Positions 1,204-35,546 of a DNA stretch of 35,546 bases are shown here, piece by piece. Origin of the DNA: a virus (lineage: Duplodnaviria; Heunggongvirae; Uroviricota; Caudoviricetes). The stretch lies in IMG/VR virus record IMGVR_UViG_2778261064_000019. One strand, written 5' to 3'. The notes under the pieces are model-generated. The model saw only the letters and a program-made list of their open reading frames with translations, had not been told where the DNA came from and made no database searches. A program made the translations under genes and the position numbers. The stretch's first letter is position 1, and each line of letters starts with the position of its first letter.

Positions 1204-1458
1204 CTATGCGGGGATCTTGGTACCAGAGCGCTTTGGGACTTTGGCCAGATTTTTCTGTACCGCGTTATCAATATGGTGATGGTTATTTTCCTGCCGTGCT
1301 TTGAGCCAGCGTTCCACTTCCTCTTTGTCCCACGCGACGGCGCGCTTCGTTAGCGCAAAACGTTTGGGAAACAGGCCTTTTTGCTCCAACGCATAAATCG
1401 TACTTTCAGAGAGTGGCACCATCTGTAAAAGCACGTTTTTTCTAATGGCAATTTTCAT
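1204..1458 (-). CDS. AlpA-family HTH regulator / excisionase-like protein
   Basis: 84-aa ORF convergent with int (3-bp gap). Segment STIYALEQKGLFPKRFALTKRAVAWDKEEVERWL resembles AlpA/phage regulatory protein family. Start may be the internal Met at 1422. Confidence 0.65.
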   Translation of the reverse strand: MKIAIRKNVLLQMVPLSESTIYALEQKGLFPKRFALTKRAVAWDKEEVERWLKARQENNHHHIDNAVQKNLAKVPKRSGTKIPA

Positions 1459-2269
1459 TGTTTATTCCTTTAATCCAAAGGCACTCAGTTCTGATAACAG
1501 ATCCTTTTTTACCAGCAGCGGCAGATTGCTTTGTCTCTTTACGCCAGCCGGTTAGCAAATCGTTATACATTTCGGTGTCGTAGCCGCTGATAACCACGCT
1601 TCCTTGTAACCGGGTGACGGTCTCCAGTAAGCGCAGGTGGGCACCATCGTCCATTTCGTGGCGATAATATTTGTTAGTCAGATTACGGGTGCTATGAACA
1701 TACGGCGGATCGACAAAATGCAGCGTGTCGGCGGCGTCATGATCCAGAATACACTGGATGGCATCGCGGTTTTCCACCAGAACCCCTTCAAAACGCTGAC
1801 CAACGGCGGCCAGATTATCGGGCATACGGCTCCAGATGTGTTGGGCCGTTCCACTGGCGCGTTTAGTGTCCAGCCGAAAGCCGGTAGTGCCTTTAGTTGC
1901 CCCGGCAGAACCGAAGCCCATCGTGGCGCGAATCACTAAACGCCTTGCCTGTTCAACAGAATTTTTCCCATAGCGATAGGCCGAAATAAACTCGGTGCGG
2001 GAATAGGGTGTCAGGCTGCAGGCTTCAACCAGTCTTTCGCGCAGTTGTGGGGTACGAAGAACGGCGAACAGGTTAACGACGTCGCCATCCAGATCGTTGT
2101 AAACCTCGGCGTAGCTACGTGGTTTTCTGAGCAGTACGCTGGCTGCACCGCCGAAGGGTTCCACATAGCATCTGTGGGCCGGAAAGTGGCTAATGATCCA
2201 CGGAGCTAGTCGCCACTTGCCGCCGTGGTAGCGGATTGCAGGGTGCTTAATCATCCAGTTTTTCTCCAC
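1442..2269 (-). CDS. DNA N6-adenine methyltransferase (Dam-like, orphan)
   Basis: 275-aa ORF with N-terminal AdoMet-binding motif YVEPFGGAASVLL and catalytic DPPY motif (FVDPPYVHSTRN). No adjacent restriction enzyme gene. Confidence 0.8.
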   Translation of the reverse strand: MEKNWMIKHPAIRYHGGKWRLAPWIISHFPAHRCYVEPFGGAASVLLRKPRSYAEVYNDLDGDVVNLFAVLRTPQLRERLVEACSLTPYSRTEFISAYRYGKNSVEQARRLVIRATMGFGSAGATKGTTGFRLDTKRASGTAQHIWSRMPDNLAAVGQRFEGVLVENRDAIQCILDHDAADTLHFVDPPYVHSTRNLTNKYYRHEMDDGAHLRLLETVTRLQGSVVISGYDTEMYNDLLTGWRKETKQSAAAGKKGSVIRTECLWIKGINNENCH

Positions 2270-5602: not shown

Positions 5603-5833
5603 TTACGCGATTTTCTGCTTTTGCAGAAATTGCCCGCGTGTGGATAGCGGTATGTGTATCTTAGGATTCGGGCAACCGCTGGGTACTACCGTTCCCATCA
5701 CGGTCTCCATCGCGATAAATGAAAACGAACAGTTAACGTTCTTGCACTGGTAATAGAGCTTACGTACCAGCGGTGACATATATTCGCTGCTGCGAATTAT
5801 CGCCTTACCGTCGCAGTGTGGGCATTTCATCAT
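5603..5833 (-). CDS. ogr: Ogr/Delta-family zinc-finger late-gene transcriptional activator
   Basis: MMKCPHCDGKAIIRSSE...YYQCKNVNCSFSF matches the Cys4 motif of P2 Ogr. Start set at ATG 5833 (AGGAG 7 nt upstream) rather than the longer ORF start at 5851. Monomer size (76 aa) is Ogr-like, not the duplicated P4 Delta. Confidence 0.85.
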   Translation of the reverse strand: MMKCPHCDGKAIIRSSEYMSPLVRKLYYQCKNVNCSFSFIAMETVMGTVVPSGCPNPKIHIPLSTRGQFLQKQKIA

Positions 5834-6156
5834 GTCCGATCTCCTTACCACTTTTAACTAACTGAAACACTAACGCTTTTCGTTAACGGACTGACGAAAT
5901 AGTGTGATGCCGTTCAAAAAAATGATTCTTGCCATGCTGGACATCGAACGGTTCTGCTCCAGCGCTAATGCTTACAGTTCCGCGATTTCAGCGGGGAGCA
6001 GACGCATTGCCACCGGTTTGTTCGACATCACCCCGCGGGGTGCTCGTGAGCGTAAGACGTTCTCATTTGTTTTCATGGTGGTATATTGTGGTTATTAACA
6101 TTACACAATCTATAATTCCCTCAATTGAGTGAATTGTCAATGGTAATTATATCCAA
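5834..6156. promoter_or_regulatory. Divergent intergenic control region between ogr (minus) and the XRE gene (plus)
   Basis: 323-bp non-coding gap between divergently transcribed genes. Contains a 14-bp perfect palindrome CACCCCGCGGGGTG (6029..6042), palindrome TCAATTGA (6121..6128), TATAAT (6111..6116) and TTGTCA (6135..6140). Promoter assignment is not resolved. Confidence 0.35.
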
Positions 6157-6495
6157 ATGAAAGAATTTGGCATCCGTTTGAAGGAAGAACGTATCCGACT
6201 TGGCCTTGATCAAGACGGCTTTGGACAACTTGGGGGCGTGAAGAAAAACGCACAAAGTAACTATGAGAATGGACTGCGCAAGCCGGACAGTGACTATCTT
6301 GCTGGCATAGCGGCAGCGGGAGTTGATGTTCTGTATGTTCTAACAGGCAACCGCACGCCTGTGGCTACGTTGTCCAGTAAAGAGAGTGTGTTGGTGGAGA
6401 ACTATCGTTCTGCTACGCCAGAACACCAGTCCACCCTTGACACGGTTAGCGCTGCGCTTGCGCAACCGGGAGTAGGGAAAGCAGCTAAGGGATAA
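6157..6495 (+). CDS. XRE-family helix-turn-helix regulator (candidate prophage repressor or cargo regulator)
   Basis: 112-aa ORF; N-terminal HTH pattern (IRLKEERIRLGLDQDGFGQLGGVKKNAQSNYENGLRKP) is typical of Cro/CI-type regulators. Divergent from the ogr-primase string, directly upstream of the AT-rich operon. Confidence 0.7.
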   Translation: MKEFGIRLKEERIRLGLDQDGFGQLGGVKKNAQSNYENGLRKPDSDYLAGIAAAGVDVLYVLTGNRTPVATLSSKESVLVENYRSATPEHQSTLDTVSAALAQPGVGKAAKG

Positions 6496-6535
6496 CGAGT
6501 AGAATGAATTTGGTTATTGTCTGTATGGAGGCAAA

Positions 6536-7108
6536 ATGAAGTTGAATAATCTGGTTGCTCTTTACAGGAACATGACAGAGCAAAAATTGGATAGGGTTAA
6601 ATTCCCATACAGACACAATAATTTACATTTTGATGTATTTTTCTTTATTGATGGAAAACCGTTTGAGCTTCTTTTCGGAGCATTAGGCGCTAATCTTTGC
6701 TTTCGTCTAAAAGTCGAGAAGGGATTCGTCATAAATCCTAATCTGGGAAGTGAGACTTATAAAGAATTATGCAAGGCGCTAGGTTTGAAATATGACCCTG
6801 CCAATCCATTTAGAACAAGTAAGTTTTTTGAAGATTTTGATGGGAAAATCCCTACATCGGTTACTGTTAAGAATAAGGCAAAATATACTGATATTGCTGT
6901 GCATGTCAGGGATGTTGAAGAAGCAGACAGAATATATTTCTGTGGATGGAAAAACAACAATGAAGAAAAGAGTCATGTTACTGAAGATAATTTAAAGAAA
7001 ACGAAAGAGTTTTTAGGGTATCAGGCTTTTCTTGTTTGTAAGGAAAAGAATATTAGCAGTAGATGGACTGATTTAGAAAATAAAGCAAAAGATTTTTATT
7101 TACCATAG
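6536..7108 (+). CDS. Hypothetical protein, AT-rich cargo operon gene 1
   Basis: 190-aa ORF with GGAGG-like RBS before the ATG. Strongly AT-biased codon usage unlike the flanking phage genes. No family recognised. Confidence 0.6.
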   Translation: MKLNNLVALYRNMTEQKLDRVKFPYRHNNLHFDVFFFIDGKPFELLFGALGANLCFRLKVEKGFVINPNLGSETYKELCKALGLKYDPANPFRTSKFFEDFDGKIPTSVTVKNKAKYTDIAVHVRDVEEADRIYFCGWKNNNEEKSHVTEDNLKKTKEFLGYQAFLVCKEKNISSRWTDLENKAKDFYLP

Positions 7109-7122
7109 GATTGTGAGGTTAT

Positions 7123-8271
7123 ATGTCTGATATTTCATTAGGGTGCGTGGTTGTTCATAGGTTGATAAAAGAGCAACATAAAGATTTCGATCACTCAAAA
7201 CCATATAGTCGCCGTGATACGGTTCTTGACCGAAATAATGAAATCGTAATTAAACTAGTGTCCAGTATAGCCGCATTGTATGGTAAAAAATCTAATAGCT
7301 CGCATTATGGTATATTTAATTTAGATGAAACACGCAGGGGGCCTTTTCCAGCGGAATTTGATAAATATCGGAATGATACATCCAAGAAGTTAGACGATGA
7401 ATTGTTTATAGGATTATCAAAAAATGTTATGCATCAGTTATATATTGAGGCAAAGGATCGACCTGCTGCATCAGGAGGATTACTTCTTTTTGCTGATTAT
7501 ATCAGTAAATCCGTGCGTTACTTTCTTATTGCAATGATTAAGCAAAAGGAAGGTATAGTTATTAGTGATAAATTAGAGCCAAAGGAGTTAGAGCATCTTG
7601 ATCTGGCAAAACTAAACCAGGCGGCACGAATAAACTATGATTTGTATGATAAATATATTTCCGCTGATGAGAATGAAAGACAGGATGTTAATTATTTAAG
7701 TTTTGTTAGTCCCAGTTCTAACCAGACAACTTCAGGGTATTTCATTACTGCCTTAGGTTGTGATAAAGGTAATACATCAACTAAAGCTACGAGTAATTTA
7801 ATTAATGAATCTTTTAACTTCTTCAGAAATCATCAAGAATTAAAGGATAATGCCCGTAAATTTAAAAATGAAATTATTGAGTATTTATTCGATTGTTCTG
7901 AAAATAACATTTCAGCTAAGCTCTCTGTTGTTAGTGAGATGGCGGCGAAGCATATGGTTAATTTAGAAGATGACATTAAAGATAAATTGTCAGAAGAATT
8001 ATATGCTCATTTGAATAGTGAAAGTATTCGTGTGCCTGTGGAATTTAGGGTAAGCAAATCAGTAGTTAAGAAAAACAGAAATATTAAATATACAAGTGAT
8101 AATGTTAATTTTGAGTTTAAATCTAGTTTACTAGGCAATACTCTTGATAATGAGATATGCTATAATAAGAAAACTGGACATTTAACTTTTACTCGGATTA
8201 CTCCTGAGAAAAAAAGTGAAATAGCTCAATTGCTTGATGAGTTAATAAAAGAAAGAAATAGCGAAAAATAA
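7123..8271 (+). CDS. YejK/NdpA-like (NA37 family) nucleoid-associated protein homologue, cargo gene 2
   Basis: 382-aa ORF, 14 bp after gene 1 with a GTGAGG RBS. Full-length pattern similarity to E. coli YejK as recalled: MSDISLGCVVVHRLIK vs MSLDINQIALHQLIK; ASGGLLLFADYISKSVRYFLIAMI vs [25 protein letters not shown]. Not verified by search. Confidence 0.6.
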   Translation: MSDISLGCVVVHRLIKEQHKDFDHSKPYSRRDTVLDRNNEIVIKLVSSIAALYGKKSNSSHYGIFNLDETRRGPFPAEFDKYRNDTSKKLDDELFIGLSKNVMHQLYIEAKDRPAASGGLLLFADYISKSVRYFLIAMIKQKEGIVISDKLEPKELEHLDLAKLNQAARINYDLYDKYISADENERQDVNYLSFVSPSSNQTTSGYFITALGCDKGNTSTKATSNLINESFNFFRNHQELKDNARKFKNEIIEYLFDCSENNISAKLSVVSEMAAKHMVNLEDDIKDKLSEELYAHLNSESIRVPVEFRVSKSVVKKNRNIKYTSDNVNFEFKSSLLGNTLDNEICYNKKTGHLTFTRITPEKKSEIAQLLDELIKERNSEK

Positions 8272-8282
8272 GGTTGCTTAAT

Positions 8283-8912
8283 ATGTCATGTTTTGAAACG
8301 GTTGTTGAGCTTTTCAGATATGTAGGGCGTCCTAAATTTGATGCTATTAATAATCGTTTTTCAGCAACTATTTCTTATGATGCTCATATATATGAACTCT
8401 TAGTTTCTTTGCAACCTCATACAGCGTGGGGAGAAATTGAAGAGATTGTCATTGATGATGTGGATATAGATGTTGATGATAGCCTTCCCGCTAAAGGAAC
8501 ATCAATAACACTGACAATCTCTATATCAACTGGAGCTAGTGAGTCATTTTTTATCGATATTAAAGATCTAATTCAAAAGTCTCCGATGTTAAATAGAGGT
8601 ATTTTAAGAAAGTCTTTTTACTTGGTTGAGGAAGATTTTTATTTTAATGAAGGAATGGTTGAGGGATTAGCAAAAATACCAGAACTATCTGTTTTAAAGA
8701 ATCTTTGTGATTTTATTTTATGTCTATCAAAAGTTGCACACTACAGCAATAGTAAAAGTGATGATGTATGCCATAAGTTAGTTTTCTTGAAAAATACTAA
8801 TGCTAAGTCATTACCTTTAATTATTGAAACTAATGTTGATTATTCACTTCTTTTAACAGGTATTAAGGATTTAAAAATCATCGAATCTTTTTCTGATGAA
8901 AAAAAGCTATAA
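8283..8912 (+). CDS. Hypothetical acidic protein, cargo gene 3
   Basis: ORF track starts at TTG 8274; the first ATG is at 8283, about 11 nt after the gene 2 stop. Contains acidic stretch EEIVIDDVDIDVDDS. No family recognised. Confidence 0.55.
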   Translation: MSCFETVVELFRYVGRPKFDAINNRFSATISYDAHIYELLVSLQPHTAWGEIEEIVIDDVDIDVDDSLPAKGTSITLTISISTGASESFFIDIKDLIQKSPMLNRGILRKSFYLVEEDFYFNEGMVEGLAKIPELSVLKNLCDFILCLSKVAHYSNSKSDDVCHKLVFLKNTNAKSLPLIIETNVDYSLLLTGIKDLKIIESFSDEKKL

Positions 8913-8956
8913 CGGATGATAATTATTTTGAGCGAAAAGGGATTTTCATTAATACG

Positions 8957-9538
8957 GTGGTCGATTTTCTTGAATCAATCGATGTAAAGAAACAGTTTCA
9001 TTTTTTATTCTGTGAGTGGGATGAATTTCTAAAACTATACCATAATAACCTCGGTGTATATCTTAGTGGTTTTTCATTTCATAAAGTAAGAAAGGAAGTG
9101 GCAGAGGCAGAAGCTAATTTAGCTGAGCGTTTTTCAAAAATAATGTCAGACATGATAGCTAAGCTTTTAGGTATTCCTGTTTCTTTGGTTGCTACTTTTG
9201 GCATGATAAAATTAAATACCCTGCCGGAAATGTTAGTGGTTTTTTTAGGTGTATTGCTCACGTCGATAATTATGTTTTTTATTGTAAGAAGTCAATACAC
9301 ACAGTTTAGGATGATTTGTGATGCTAAAGATATTATATTTTCCCCATTAGTGAAAAAATCTGTAGGTTATACAGAAGATTTGAAAAAATTAGTATGCAAT
9401 GCAAAGGATAATTTAGACAAAAATCAGGTCATGTTAAATCGTTACCTTCTTTTCTTTCAATGCTTATGCTGGATTCCGACAGCCTTAGGTGGTGGAATGA
9501 TCTTAATGGCTATTATGGTTCATTTAGGATTACTATAA
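8957..9538 (+). CDS. Predicted multi-pass membrane protein, cargo gene 4
   Basis: Hydrophobic segments IPVSLVATFGMI, MLVVFLGVLLTSIIMFFIV and YLLFFQCLCWIPTALGGGMILMAIMVHLGLL. Track start is a GTG at 8957, so the true start is uncertain. Stop codon overlaps the gpD stop convergently. Confidence 0.5.
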   Translation: MVDFLESIDVKKQFHFLFCEWDEFLKLYHNNLGVYLSGFSFHKVRKEVAEAEANLAERFSKIMSDMIAKLLGIPVSLVATFGMIKLNTLPEMLVVFLGVLLTSIIMFFIVRSQYTQFRMICDAKDIIFSPLVKKSVGYTEDLKKLVCNAKDNLDKNQVMLNRYLLFFQCLCWIPTALGGGMILMAIMVHLGLL

Positions 9539-10633
9539 ACTTAATTCCATTTCTAATGCGGTGACATAACCAGTACCGCCATCCAACGTATGCACGCACC
9601 GCGTAATCACCCACGCGGTGCCATCAATTTCCGCCTTAAACCCCTTCACCTGCAGCGGTAATTCCGGGAACAAATCGGGCCGTCCACGCGCAAGATTCAG
9701 GCTGAACGTTGCCGCGCCGCGCTGTAGCTGCTCCCACGCGCTTTTTGCCGCTCTGTAGGCGTTATTTTTGTTGGCATAGGTGTGGCGCAGCACCTTGATA
9801 TTTCCCTCTTCGCCAACCATCACGTTATCAGCATTGAATGAGGCGTCTGACGGCGGAGATTCTGTTGGTTGCGTTTGTGGACGGTTTTTCCGTGTCTTGC
9901 GCTTCATGTCAGTGGACTGCTTTTTTGCCTGCCGTGTATCCAGCCAGTAGGCCGTCACACCGGTATACGCCTCCCTGTCCGCGATGCTGAACCGGTGGCT
10001 GTCGCCGTCCTCGCGGGTAATGGTTGCGACCGGCAGCGGTTTGCCGCTGGCACTTTTACCGGAACCTGTCGGCATTAGCAGCAGAGCATCATTTTTCACG
10101 CAGGCGATAGCGCCGTGCAGTTGCGCCAGCCGGGTCAGGAAGGAGGCATCGGATTCGTTAGTCTGGTCAACGTGCTCAATGGCGATCCCAGCCAGCTCGC
10201 CGCTGACGGTTGATTCCAGCTTATGACGCGCCGCCACGGTTTGCACAATCGCGCCCAGCGTCGCATCATGGTAGCTCTGTTCCCGTTTAACGTTCAGCGA
10301 ATCGCGGAAATCGGCGCTGCGGGCGCGGAGGCTGAGTACGTCCGGTGCGCCGCTGTGCTCCAGTTCGTCCACTGTGAAGACATTCTGGTGCATCACGCCG
10401 TCACCCTTCCAGCCTAGAGAAACCGTTAGCTTTTCGCCCTTTGCCGGAAACGCCAGCAGGCCGTCGCTGTCGTCCAGTTCGAGCTGCAGTTCGTCGGCCT
10501 CAAAGCCCCGGTTGTCGGTGATACGCAGGCTGATTAAGCGGTTGTCCAGATTCCGCGTAATGTCCTTACCGTTCAGCACCACGCTGTACTCCGGCTGCGG
10601 CTGGGCGTTTAAGAGTGCGTTTAACATCGTCAT
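9533..10633 (-). CDS. D: P2 gpD-like tail protein (late control D)
   Basis: 366-aa ORF at the end of the T-U-D string, in the order and size expected for P2 D. Confidence 0.8.
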   Translation of the reverse strand: MTMLNALLNAQPQPEYSVVLNGKDITRNLDNRLISLRITDNRGFEADELQLELDDSDGLLAFPAKGEKLTVSLGWKGDGVMHQNVFTVDELEHSGAPDVLSLRARSADFRDSLNVKREQSYHDATLGAIVQTVAARHKLESTVSGELAGIAIEHVDQTNESDASFLTRLAQLHGAIACVKNDALLLMPTGSGKSASGKPLPVATITREDGDSHRFSIADREAYTGVTAYWLDTRQAKKQSTDMKRKTRKNRPQTQPTESPPSDASFNADNVMVGEEGNIKVLRHTYANKNNAYRAAKSAWEQLQRGAATFSLNLARGRPDLFPELPLQVKGFKAEIDGTAWVITRCVHTLDGGTGYVTALEMELSL

Positions 10634-33853: not shown

Positions 33854-34138
33854 AAAAGGTAACCTCAGTAATTAGCAGTAAAAATAATGCTTATTCTATT
33901 GTTTATAAAAGAGAAATTTGGTTACCCCTAAAAGGTAATCTGAGGTAACCCAAAAGGTAACCTGTTTTATATTTTCATATAAATCATGATGTTACAAATT
34001 AGAAGACATCACTATTATAAAAGGTAACCTGATTACGCTTTGGTTACCAAAAGATTACCTTTCTCTGTTTTTGAAAAATCCTTTTTATTCATTAAGTTAT
34101 TTTGATTTTTCGTTGCAGGTTACTAAGGTTACCTTTTT
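33854..34138. repeat. Cluster of about nine AAAGGTAACC-type short repeats in both orientations
   Basis: GGTAACC/GGTTACC cores at 33858, 33920, 33944, 33956, 34023, 34042 and 34127, plus GGTAATC variants at 33933 and 34053. Most are flanked by an A-tract; three sit at 11-12 bp spacing (33933, 33944, 33956). Region is A/T-rich and non-coding. Confidence 0.7.
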
Positions 34139-34407
34139 CCGAAGTCCCCACGGACTTTGGTATATATAGATAGGTTAAAAAGTAGCCGTTATGTTTGCCA
34201 GCTATTTACTTCCCATTCTTCCACTGGCCAGCATGTTAATATGCCCGGTAATGATAACTAGTTGCCATTGGGTTACTTTCTTCTGTGGACGGTAAAACTG
34301 ACGGTAAATTGGGTTGTGGGTCTCGATTTAGATTAGTAAAATCAAGTGATTAAGTCGACTGTAGATAATCGAGTGGGAATGATTTGATCCCTGCACTATG
34401 AATTAGC

Positions 34408-34437
34408 AAAACCCTCTGTTACTACAGAGGGTTTTTT
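34408..34437. terminator. Bidirectional Rho-independent terminator
   Basis: 9-bp stem AACCCTCTG / CAGAGGGTT with a 6-nt loop, flanked by AAAA upstream and TTTTTT downstream. Lies just after the stop of the minus-strand gene 34476..35015. Confidence 0.6.
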
Positions 34438-34475
34438 ATACTCACGAATCATAGGATTGAAGTTACTGACATCGC

Positions 34476-35015
34476 TTAGTTAAACCAGCTGTCCGATTTG
34501 TTTTCTTCTGCTTTGCCCACGCTTTTCATCAGATCGCGACCGCCTTCAGTCATATTCCTGTTTGCGTCAGCTTCAGATTGCACCACATCGGTTTGCGCAG
34601 CTTTGTGCTTCAGTTCCTGATCGATAAATTCGTTTTCTCGCTTAACGCGGGCTTCTTCTTTCGCCAGCGCCAGTTTTTGTTTCTGAATCTCTAAGCTGCG
34701 TAGCTCATCTTCATAACTTTGATCGCGTTTCTTGTCCGCAGTGGCTTCGGCGTCCAGTTTATCCTGACGAGCTTTCTTATTCGCCGCTGCCGTTGCCGCT
34801 CTTTTATTAGCCGCGGCCTGGGCGTTTGCGCGACGTTGCTTCTCTTGCTGGATTTCCCTGTTGCGCTCCGCGACCCATTCGTCATGCTGCCTTTGCTCTT
34901 CGTTTTTACCTTGCTGTTCCGCTTCTGCGACAGCAGAGAGTTGATCCTGCAATGATGAGGCGATAGCCGGATAGCTTAAGGAGGCTAAGATGGCGCAAAG
35001 AAAAACTTTCTTCAT
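34476..35015 (-). CDS. Secreted coiled-coil protein (likely host-encoded)
   Basis: 179-aa ORF with a signal peptide (MKKVFLCAILASLSYPAIA) and a Lys/Glu/Ala-rich coiled-coil body. Confidence 0.5.
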   Translation of the reverse strand: MKKVFLCAILASLSYPAIASSLQDQLSAVAEAEQQGKNEEQRQHDEWVAERNREIQQEKQRRANAQAAANKRAATAAANKKARQDKLDAEATADKKRDQSYEDELRSLEIQKQKLALAKEEARVKRENEFIDQELKHKAAQTDVVQSEADANRNMTEGGRDLMKSVGKAEENKSDSWFN

Positions 35016-35030
35016 GACTCCTCCTGATTA

Positions 35031-35546
35031 TTAGCTCTTTTCAGGACATTTGGTATTTGGCTGAATACGCGTTTCGTTATACGTCGTGGTAATAACAACG
35101 GCTAAACCTGTCGTAAACTGGCACTCTTTACCCACCTGGGTGGAGGTATACACTTTGGTGCCTTCCTTATACGTTAGAGAAACACCTTCCACTAAGGTTT
35201 TATCATTCACCATAGAACCTGCTGCCGCGCCAACAGCTCCGCCGCCAACTGCACCTGCCGTCGTTCCGGAATTGCTGCCAGACCCCACGTTGTGGCCGAT
35301 AACACCGCCAGCGACTGCACCAATAAGCGCGCCGAAGGCTTGTGCGTTTCGTTTATTTTGGGAGTTGTCTACGGCAACTTTTGCGGGAAGAATGGAAATA
35401 ATATTAACGGTTTTAGTTTCTTGTTTGGTATTCAGTTGATCGGTTTGATAAACATCGGCGGCATGATCATCAGCATTTGACTGGCATCCTGCCAGAGTGA
35501 ATGACGCTAACATTGCCACAGGCAGAAGACATTTTTTAAATTTCAT
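35031..35546 (-). CDS. Lipoprotein with glycine-zipper segment (likely host-encoded)
   Basis: 171-aa ORF with lipobox (FTLAGC) and Gly-rich segment GALIGAVAGGVIGHNVGSG...GAVGGGAVGAAAGS. Confidence 0.55.
   Translation of the reverse strand: MKFKKCLLPVAMLASFTLAGCQSNADDHAADVYQTDQLNTKQETKTVNIISILPAKVAVDNSQNKRNAQAFGALIGAVAGGVIGHNVGSGSNSGTTAGAVGGGAVGAAAGSMVNDKTLVEGVSLTYKEGTKVYTSTQVGKECQFTTGLAVVITTTYNETRIQPNTKCPEKS

Follow-up and report, generated by a model that had tools for sequence, protein, structure and literature searches.

Nucleoid-associated proteins (NAPs) related to YejK are found in two recently published kinds of anti-phage system. DS-1 (working id D390; WP_000355468.1 + WP_000150292.1) encodes a YejK-domain protein followed by a 404-aa protein and scored as defensive, with -log efficiency of plating (EOP) values of 7.6 for Bas1, 2.7 for Bas26 and 1.7 for Bas3 and T3; the system was validated by phage challenge (DeWeirdt et al., Science 2026). 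PANGU, described in a preprint (Li et al., bioRxiv 2026, doi 10.64898/2026.04.06.716658), occurs in two types. Type I consists of a YejK-like NAP and a GRel toxSAS, and Type II of a NAP (Pag2A) and a transmembrane (TM) effector (Pag2B). At its N-terminus, this effector carries an acidic domain that mimics DNA (DMK domain) and has a KD of 19 nM for the NAP. Both Type II genes are essential, and protection (T4, Bas34) is by abortive infection. The PANGU NAP leaves the nucleoid when T4 degrades the host DNA, the NAP activates Pag1B, and no toxicity was observed for the PANGU constructs (Li et al., bioRxiv 2026). Here, we analyzed a 35,546-nt stretch of viral DNA (Caudoviricetes; IMG/VR record IMGVR_UViG_2778261064_000019), the full length of which is referred to as the window. 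Our analysis suggests that the region at 6469-9564 is a moron locus of two stacked modules, a DUF6037 gene and a DS-1/PANGU-II-like gene pair, the effector gene of which is frameshifted in this genome. With a probability of roughly three in four for this reading as a whole, the pair would represent a divergent Type II PANGU/DS-1-like system and not a new kind of system.

A nucleoid-associated protein and a membrane partner form a conserved pair resembling DS-1 and Type II PANGU

The locus contains the following features:

6469..9564, no strand assigned: variable low-GC cargo block (moron locus), delimited by blastn against the prophage of Escherichia coli L725; GC 0.32 versus 0.55
6536..7108, + strand: DUF6037 protein (PF19503), 190 aa, basic, no TM segment (ORF1)
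7123..8271, + strand: YejK/NA37-family nucleoid-associated protein, 382 aa, Pag2A-like/DS-1A-like putative sensor (ORF2)
8283..8912, + strand: 5' part of a pag2B-like gene, acidic N-terminal alpha/beta domain, DMK-like; 209 aa, pI 4.8, net charge -11 (ORF3)
8899..8905 (entered as 8899..8906), + strand: poly-A tract, A7 in the window, A8 in the intact allele, A6/A9 in other isolates
8957..9538, + strand: 3' part of the pag2B-like gene, conserved SGFSFHK helix region and TM helices; 193 aa, GTG start (ORF4)

As in Type II PANGU, the core gene codes for a YejK-like (NA37) NAP. The 382-aa protein matched PF04245 at 5.1e-45 (154.7 bits, cut-off 24.6), PHROG 3767 at 4e-63 and the solved YejK structure PDB 9be2 at E 1.4e-9, and its naming as a YejK/NdpA-like protein in the original prediction for this DNA holds. 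The adjacent partner has 418 aa in its intact allele and matched no Pfam family. Its AF2 model (pLDDT 81.9) consists of an alpha/beta N-terminal domain followed by long helices; residues 1-213 are acidic (pI 4.6-4.8), and residues ~291-340 and 388-418 form TM-like segments in a basic C-terminal part. As judged from its sequence, the intact allele would therefore join an acidic N-terminal DMK domain to a C-terminal TM domain, the partner architecture of Type II PANGU.

DS1_1 and DS1_2 were the only named families in NCBIfam that both proteins matched. The NA37 protein scored 80.8 bits against DS1_1 (NF053868; cut-off 330), and the intact partner scored 70.5 bits and the C-terminal fragment 48.5 bits against DS1_2 (NF053869; cut-off 315), all below the equivalog cut-offs. 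BLASTP of the window proteins against DS-1 gave 26% identity (E 8e-9 and 2e-7). Remote homology extended to both proteins in the same gene order: hhalign aligned the NA37 clade with DS-1A (97.3%, E 2e-11, 318 columns) and the partner clade with DS-1B (96.2%, E 2e-9, 260 columns). The sizes are similar as well, with 382 + 418 aa here and 391 + 404 aa in DS-1, and in DS-1, too, the N-terminal half of the partner is acidic and its C-terminal helices are hydrophobic. The predicted list of the DS-1 study also contains a 382-aa nucleoid-associated protein, WP_120130707.1 (DeWeirdt et al., Science 2026).

The NA37 gene and the partner gene are the conserved unit of the locus. We found 59 viral contigs with an NA37 relative (31-53% identity), and in 58 of them a homologue of the partner (403-428 aa) is encoded immediately downstream; the sole exception is cut by the contig end, which leaves the pair adjacent in 58/58 assessable cases. 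The pair also occurs in a Serratia prophage-like region, in lambdoid prophages between the lysis genes and Q, in a P4-like element, in common E. coli lambdoid prophages and in the isolated Klebsiella phage P7641. In all of these places, it is oriented against the phage genes and has a low GC content. Salmonella lambdoid prophages carry the complete trio, with identities to the window proteins of 39% (DUF6037), 46% (NA37) and 35% (partner), and the NA37 protein of this trio (P0059) is indexed in 846 blocks.

The pair of NA37 and a 406-aa protein in E. coli lambdoid prophages is located between the nin/RusA region and a Q antiterminator and adjoins a hok/gef-family toxin gene (L029-L031:4514-4726).

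Like Type II PANGU, the locus thus has a two-gene operon with the YejK-like NAP first and an acidic N-terminal, C-terminal TM partner second, and it occurs in E. coli in association with mobile elements and defence genes. It differs in that the window effector is frameshifted between the DMK and TM domains, in that a DUF6037 gene precedes the pair, and in its position in a P2-like prophage 3' of the repressor; prophages receive 0 mentions in the text of the PANGU preprint. The original prediction had stated that the gene content matched no nameable defence system and had called the system undescribed. Since DS-1 and PANGU, the latter as a preprint, were published in 2026, this no longer applies: the combination of NA37 and TM protein belongs to a kind validated in that year. 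The accompanying suggestion that a DNA-binding protein plus a membrane protein would act by abortive infection has in turn been shown by experiments on homologous or architecturally identical systems (DS-1, Type II PANGU). Of the profile and structure searches that the prediction had proposed, those with profiles named NA37, DUF6037 and the DS-1 homology, while there was no fold match for DUF6037 or the partner. PADLOC-DB v2 (2023), which predates DS-1 and PANGU, gave no match for NA37 or either partner fragment.

The partner gene is split by a frameshift in a poly-A tract

In the original prediction, the cassette was an operon of four genes. It comprises three, as ORF3 and ORF4 each represent half of a single gene for a 418-aa protein. 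The cassette of E. coli GMF054 is 99.4% identical to that of the window and has one extra A at window 8899-8905 (A8 versus A7), resulting in a single 418-aa coding sequence (CDS); the three substitutions between the two alleles inside this gene are all silent. Correspondingly, PHROG 5023 (412 positions) spans both ORFs, with positions 9-198 corresponding to ORF3 and positions 224-397 to ORF4, and 8/8 more distant homologues are single proteins of 401-419 aa. On these grounds, we rejected ORF4 as an independent membrane-protein gene. The frameshift in the A7 allele leads to a stop codon at 8910-8912, two codons on, and is placed exactly between the sensor-binding domain and the membrane domain. 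ORF3 consequently ends after 209 aa, counted from its ATG, or 212 aa from an upstream TTG, and the GTG at 8957 that opens ORF4 has no convincing ribosome-binding site. The single polypeptide with DMK and TM domains that characterizes Type II PANGU is therefore encoded in GMF054 (A8) but not in the window (A7).

A sequencing error was rejected as the cause of the split, because the exact 209-aa product occurs on 355 public contigs and the exact 193-aa product on 377, and both have RefSeq accessions. The intact form was found on 178 E. coli contigs as well as on 42 from Morganella and 10 from Salmonella houtenae; all these contig counts may reflect clonal sampling. The tract is hypervariable, since simulated A6 and A9 alleles exactly reproduced actual gene calls starting with MKKAIT... 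(213 aa, P0160) and MKKKAIT... (214 aa, P0169). In the A6 and A9 alleles, the C-terminal half gains its own ATG from an overlapping GATG.

In frame, the A7 allele reads GA-A_AAA_AAG-CTA-TAA and contains a -1 slippery heptamer at 8900-8906. We take A_AAA_AAG to be a heptamer of the dnaX/IS911 type. A simulated -1 slip on it gave a product of 418 aa that matched the intact protein throughout (0 mismatches), and the search for frameshift stimulators near the tract yielded only a weak downstream hairpin (-5.9 kcal/mol) and no upstream Shine-Dalgarno-like element. Programmed frameshifting as a conserved feature of the family was rejected: homologues such as P0015 read ...DDNKAIT... without the lysine pair, and the A-run is specific to the allele. 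Taken together, the system in the window is probably switched off or strongly attenuated by the frameshift, and slippage may possibly restore some full-length protein, so that the A7 allele could be leaky.

The strongest rival reading, which falls only somewhat short of even odds in our estimate, is that of a decaying, non-functional remnant: the effector gene of the window would be a pseudogene, and its genome would gain nothing from the locus. Besides the early stop and the poorly equipped GTG, this reading draws on the finding that the Type II operon put to the test needs both of its genes (Li et al., bioRxiv 2026). Further disruptions of the effector gene that arose independently in E. coli point in the same direction, namely frameshifts near residues 119 (P0146/P0143) and 241 (P0017) and a truncation at residue 217 (P0152). 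The intactness of both halves save for one indel, the silence of all three substitutions relative to GMF054 and the presence of the A7 allele on more than 350 contigs do not fit simple decay. Moreover, a tract that varies among A6, A7, A8 and A9 resembles that of reversible contingency loci, and a single -1 slip on the in-frame heptamer would exactly restore the full protein.

The NA37 gene, too, can be broken into two ORFs, as seen in a prophage-like region of Serratia marcescens (L022:4866-5999) and on two viral contigs (L078:3986-5126, L083:3977-5132); disruption therefore strikes either partner of the pair. These cases likewise count towards decay.

DUF6037 behaves as a separately mobile module

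ORF1 matched PF19503 over its full length (110.3 bits versus a gathering cut-off of 28.8; 1.7e-31), and its structure was modelled with high confidence (AF2, pLDDT 91.5). The predicted fold had no structural match in PDB or BFVD (best BFVD E 0.13), PADLOC-DB v2 returned only a chance-level match to DruD (E 0.031), and our literature search found no paper that mentions DUF6037. The family is small, with 638 of 1.84 billion representatives, and always single-domain; the eight longer members that we examined for fusions had no second domain. While the window copy corresponds to WP_103253371.1, the DUF6037 protein of the GMF054 cassette, WP_024247617.1, is listed as a "predicted novel defense gene", which is a machine-learning prediction (DeWeirdt et al., Science 2026).

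The distribution of DUF6037 argues for its independence. A phmmer search with the window and DS-1 proteins found no homologue of NA37 or the partner at 18/18 DUF6037 loci from species genomes, and we therefore rejected an obligate link between DUF6037 and NA37. Conversely, DUF6037 lies upstream of the pair at only 3 of the 58 assessable viral loci, and no DUF6037 gene is given for the DS-1 unit that was cloned (DeWeirdt et al., Science 2026). It stands alone in prophage cargo slots of Yersinia ruckeri, of another lambdoid prophage and of a Ralstonia prophage, and its neighbours at the species-genome loci include Type III restriction-modification (R-M), GmrSD, OLD/AAA_15, NERD, Mrr and HigB. 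In neighbour-joining trees, which are simple distance trees and indicative only, the window DUF6037 clusters with a Ralstonia-type clade and the copy of the Salmonella trio with stand-alone lambdoid copies; the two trio lineages form separate tips among NA37 relatives that have the duo only. In the closest relative of the window cassette, in a P4-like element (L025; NA37 80% identical), the pair is intact and is directly preceded by what is left of the DUF6037 C-terminus, decayed and interrupted by in-frame stops (L025:4762-4821), which is evidence of a recent loss of the gene. Our comparison thus suggests that DUF6037 is a separately mobile module that was placed upstream of the pair at least two times independently.

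In Paenibacillus (L005:7001-12020, L007:6935-12017), DUF6037 is found directly upstream of a co-oriented Type III mod-res pair. There it holds the position of the first gene, as it does in front of the window NA37 gene.

DUF6037 might instead be a functional third subunit of an integrated three-component system, acting as a regulator, a second sensor or a safety catch. The gap of 14 nt to the NA37 gene, the common strand and the common low GC content would fit such a role, as would the repetition of the gene order in Salmonella lambdoid prophages and three viral contigs. At least two juxtapositions from different DUF6037 clades could reflect selection for the combination, and NAP operon clusters in which additional conserved hypothetical genes precede or follow the NAP gene have been described (Li et al., bioRxiv 2026). 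We nevertheless consider a third subunit unlikely. DUF6037 is missing from 55/58 assessable viral loci and from the E. coli, Klebsiella and Serratia examples, L025 has lost it with both other genes intact, and it occurs without NA37 at all 18 species-genome loci and alone at prophage slots that the pair also uses. The repeated co-location of DUF6037 with the pair can be explained by shared insertion hotspots.

The cargo occupies a swappable slot in a rare P2-like prophage lineage

The cassette of the window is 100% identical to that of E. coli 24A16CRGN010. Both this cassette and that of GMF054 reside in a P2-like prophage adjoining guaA, with the gene order integrase, AlpA-like regulator, (Dam), DUF7673, toprim primase, ogr, XRE, cargo, gpD and tail genes. 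This prophage lineage is rare and was found in 4/5,426 complete E. coli genomes, two of which carry the window-type cassette and two (L725, CEC15) a different cargo. A megablast search of INPHARED with the cassette as query gave no match. The cargo is flanked by the following backbone features:

5603-5833, - strand: ogr (PF04606); a toprim primase gene also lies upstream on the - strand
6060..6087, + strand: sigma-70-like promoter match TTCTCA-16-TATATT with TG, from a consensus scan only; candidate promoter for XRE and cargo
6157..6495, + strand: XRE/HTH_3 regulator, 112 aa (PF01381, PF13560; PHROG 8 and 4 repressor families)
9533..10633, - strand: gpD (phage late control D), right-hand backbone flank, convergent with the cargo, with a 6-nt overlap

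The layout described in the original prediction was confirmed. The cargo ORFs are co-oriented on the + strand and tightly spaced, with gaps of 40, 14, 11 and 44 nt from XRE onward through ORFs 1-4. They are AT-rich, with a GC content of 0.28-0.35 over 6501-9500 versus ~0.53-0.61 in the flanks and means of 0.322 for the cassette, 0.513 (0.51) for XRE and 0.55 for the remaining window. They also lie between ogr and gpD, downstream of an XRE gene that is divergent from the ogr-primase genes. The proposed comparison of the D-ogr interval across related P2-like prophages revealed a variable site and no conserved core, since L725 and CEC15 differ from the window there; the idea of a horizontally acquired cargo at a variable site, with two of the four lineage genomes carrying something else, has thus held up. 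Homology to the L725 prophage ends at 6468 and restarts at 9565 (blastn), and both junctions fall within the last codons of XRE and gpD, respectively.

XRE is 98.4% identical in the L725 and CEC15 prophages, which bear the different cargo. As XRE remains constant while the cargo changes and homology breaks at 6468/9565, XRE is part of the phage backbone and 6469-9564 is the swappable slot. XRE is therefore context and not a component of the cassette, and a function as antitoxin or regulator of the system was ruled out because it stays with the backbone while the cargo is swapped. It is the only repressor-like gene of the prophage and divergent from the ogr-primase operon, and it is probably the immunity repressor of the backbone.

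In the sister prophages L725 (NZ_CP036202.1, L003:7425-9511) and CEC15 (NZ_CP133657.1), the slot between XRE and gpD holds genes for an NA37 protein of 362 aa (55 bits) and a RelA_SpoT "GTP pyrophosphokinase" of 333 aa (67 bits), which is the composition of Type I PANGU. The NA37 protein of these prophages is a representative in the predicted list of DeWeirdt et al., Science 2026. The two PANGU types thus appear to be exchanged at one prophage site, and this swap between Type I-like and Type II-like cargo provides natural near-isogenic material for comparison.

In phage lambda, the cI-linked genes rexA and rexB encode a cytoplasmic, nucleic-acid-related sensor and a membrane protein with an abortive or exclusion outcome. 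The original prediction had likened the locus to such a repressor-linked moron. This comparison is reasonable for the placement, because the cargo directly follows the only repressor-like gene, with a gap of 40 nt and no terminator-like site in between; it does not extend to XRE as a part of the system. From the promoter match at 6060 to position 9538, no terminator-like sites were found on the + strand (consensus matches only). In the lysogen, the promoter of the XRE repressor would therefore probably drive transcription of the cargo together with XRE itself. There is no sequence relation to rexAB: Pfam gave no match to RexA (PF15969) or any other Rex family at E values up to 1, and the window sensor, unlike that of lambda, is a YejK-family nucleoid protein.

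P2 and P4 prophages reportedly contain hotspots for defence genes (tin, old, fun(Z)). Set beside them from their description, the locus is alike in that a P2-like prophage carries swappable low-GC anti-phage cargo between backbone genes, with alternative systems in sister prophages. Particular to it are the slot, which lies between XRE and gpD beside ogr, and the rare lineage with a toprim primase early region.

Proposed mechanism

By analogy with the relatives, from which the defence phenotype, the relocalization of the nucleoid protein and the DMK binding are taken, we propose that the YejK-like nucleoid protein (7123-8271) would guard genome integrity as a sentinel bound to the host chromosome. 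Once the host DNA is degraded or remodelled by an infecting phage, the nucleoid protein would be released and could then bind the acidic, DNA-mimicking N-terminal domain of its partner, whose C-terminal TM helices may in turn damage the membrane, so that the infection is aborted. DUF6037 would be a stand-alone first module. We infer both that the divergent clade works as its relatives do and that membrane damage is the killing step. The assignment of NA37 as sensor and of the partner as effector is supported by the prophage slot, where NA37 is constant and the partner variable.

Several observations weigh against this reading. Both proteins score far below the DS-1 equivalog cut-offs and are only about 26% identical to DS-1, so that transferring its function is an extrapolation. 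The zinc ribbon of DS-1A (residues 1 to ~40-49, CxxC...CxxC), at an N-terminus with a NinF-like match in the table of DeWeirdt et al., Science 2026, remained unaligned and is absent from the window clade; the window protein begins directly with the NA37 domain and lacks an N-terminal zinc ribbon, and DS-1A branches outside the entire window-type clade in the NA37 neighbour-joining tree. The likeness to the tested PANGU-Ecu operon is one of described architecture, and even for this Type II system the killing mode of Pag2B was left unexplained (Li et al., bioRxiv 2026). A Foldseek search with the 418-aa partner against PDB gave no significant match to a pore or channel (best E 0.8). The A7 allele is commoner than the intact one (355-377 versus 178 contigs), which would be unexpected for a simple loss of function unless sampling was clonal. 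Finally, the gap between DUF6037 and NA37 of only 14 nt and the recurrence of the trio in very many Salmonella assemblies could reflect a functional link between the two modules.

A likeness of the partner to alpha-pore-forming toxins was considered and not counted as evidence (Foldseek probability <=0.08).

Kiwa is likewise composed of a membrane protein and a DNA-binding protein. The polarity could thus be reversed, with the membrane protein sensing infection at the envelope and NA37 as the effector that coats or blocks the phage DNA, and the open mechanism of Pag2B (Li et al., bioRxiv 2026) would leave room for such an order of events. We regard this as improbable. At the same site, a sister prophage pairs NA37 with a RelA/SpoT-type enzyme, which is a typical effector, and both the relocalization of the NAP upon infection and its activation of Pag1B have been published (Li et al., bioRxiv 2026). 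In addition, PADLOC (2023; inclusion of Kiwa models not confirmed) gave no match for the four cargo ORFs. A role outside defence, be it in prophage physiology (silencing, lysogenic conversion) or as an XRE-controlled, toxin-antitoxin-like addiction module, is very improbable. It would fit the general character of NA37 proteins as nucleoid proteins, the yejK-like genes that stand alone in F116 and other Pseudomonas phages and the weak matches of XRE to antitoxin-type HTH families. Against it, phage protection is known for remote homologues that share this architecture (DS-1, hhalign 96-97%), and the pair is found in classic moron slots, oriented against the phage genes. In addition, XRE remains in the backbone when the cargo changes and is absent beside the pair in lambdoid phages, and the PANGU constructs lacked toxicity (Li et al., bioRxiv 2026).

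Returning to the two-module moron locus, our findings suggest that defence systems with a NAP as sensor (PANGU/DS-1) travel as prophage cargo. In a P2-like phage their site is 3' of the repressor, lambdoid phages have them between the lysis genes and Q, and they also occur in P4-like elements and an isolated Klebsiella phage. They further flag a large clade far below the DS-1 equivalog cut-offs, which is very common in Salmonella and present in E. coli. What remains novel is DUF6037 and the frameshift-prone junction that uncouples the sensor-binding from the killing domain. On a more speculative note, DUF6037 might act by itself as a new determinant of phage defence or exclusion, or else as a modulator, recruited two times independently in front of PANGU-II-like pairs, and the poly-A tract might be a contingency switch or a leaky -1 site that sets the ratio of free DNA-mimic decoy to full-length killer; we consider this reading as a whole unlikely. 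If true, the poly-A tract would provide an abortive-infection system with an ON/OFF switch or safety catch of its own.

Further features of the window

Scans of the window for Rfam families and tRNAs gave no matches. A second variable site is located in the early region, where 1464-2842 differs from the sister prophages and the DUF7673 gene is longer in the window. The adjacent gene at 1442-2254 (- strand) encodes a D12-class (Dam-like) DNA adenine methyltransferase, which is present in the window and in 24A16CRGN010 and absent from the GMF054 and L725 prophage copies. The intergenic "switch" region between XRE and ogr (5870-6098) is annotated differently among near-identical prophages: 24A16CRGN010 has a 64-aa ORF on the + strand at 5904-6098, and GMF054 and L725 have a 52-aa ORF on the - strand, the window counterpart of which (5870-6028) contains a stop codon. 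Towards the right end of the window, the GC content drops to 0.37 at 34001-34500, followed by genes for a DUF5384 protein (34476-35015, - strand) and a glycine-zipper lipoprotein (35031-35546, - strand), possibly yfgI and yfgH. Both look like host chromosome, and the right prophage end with its att site is probably located near 33.6-34.4 kb.

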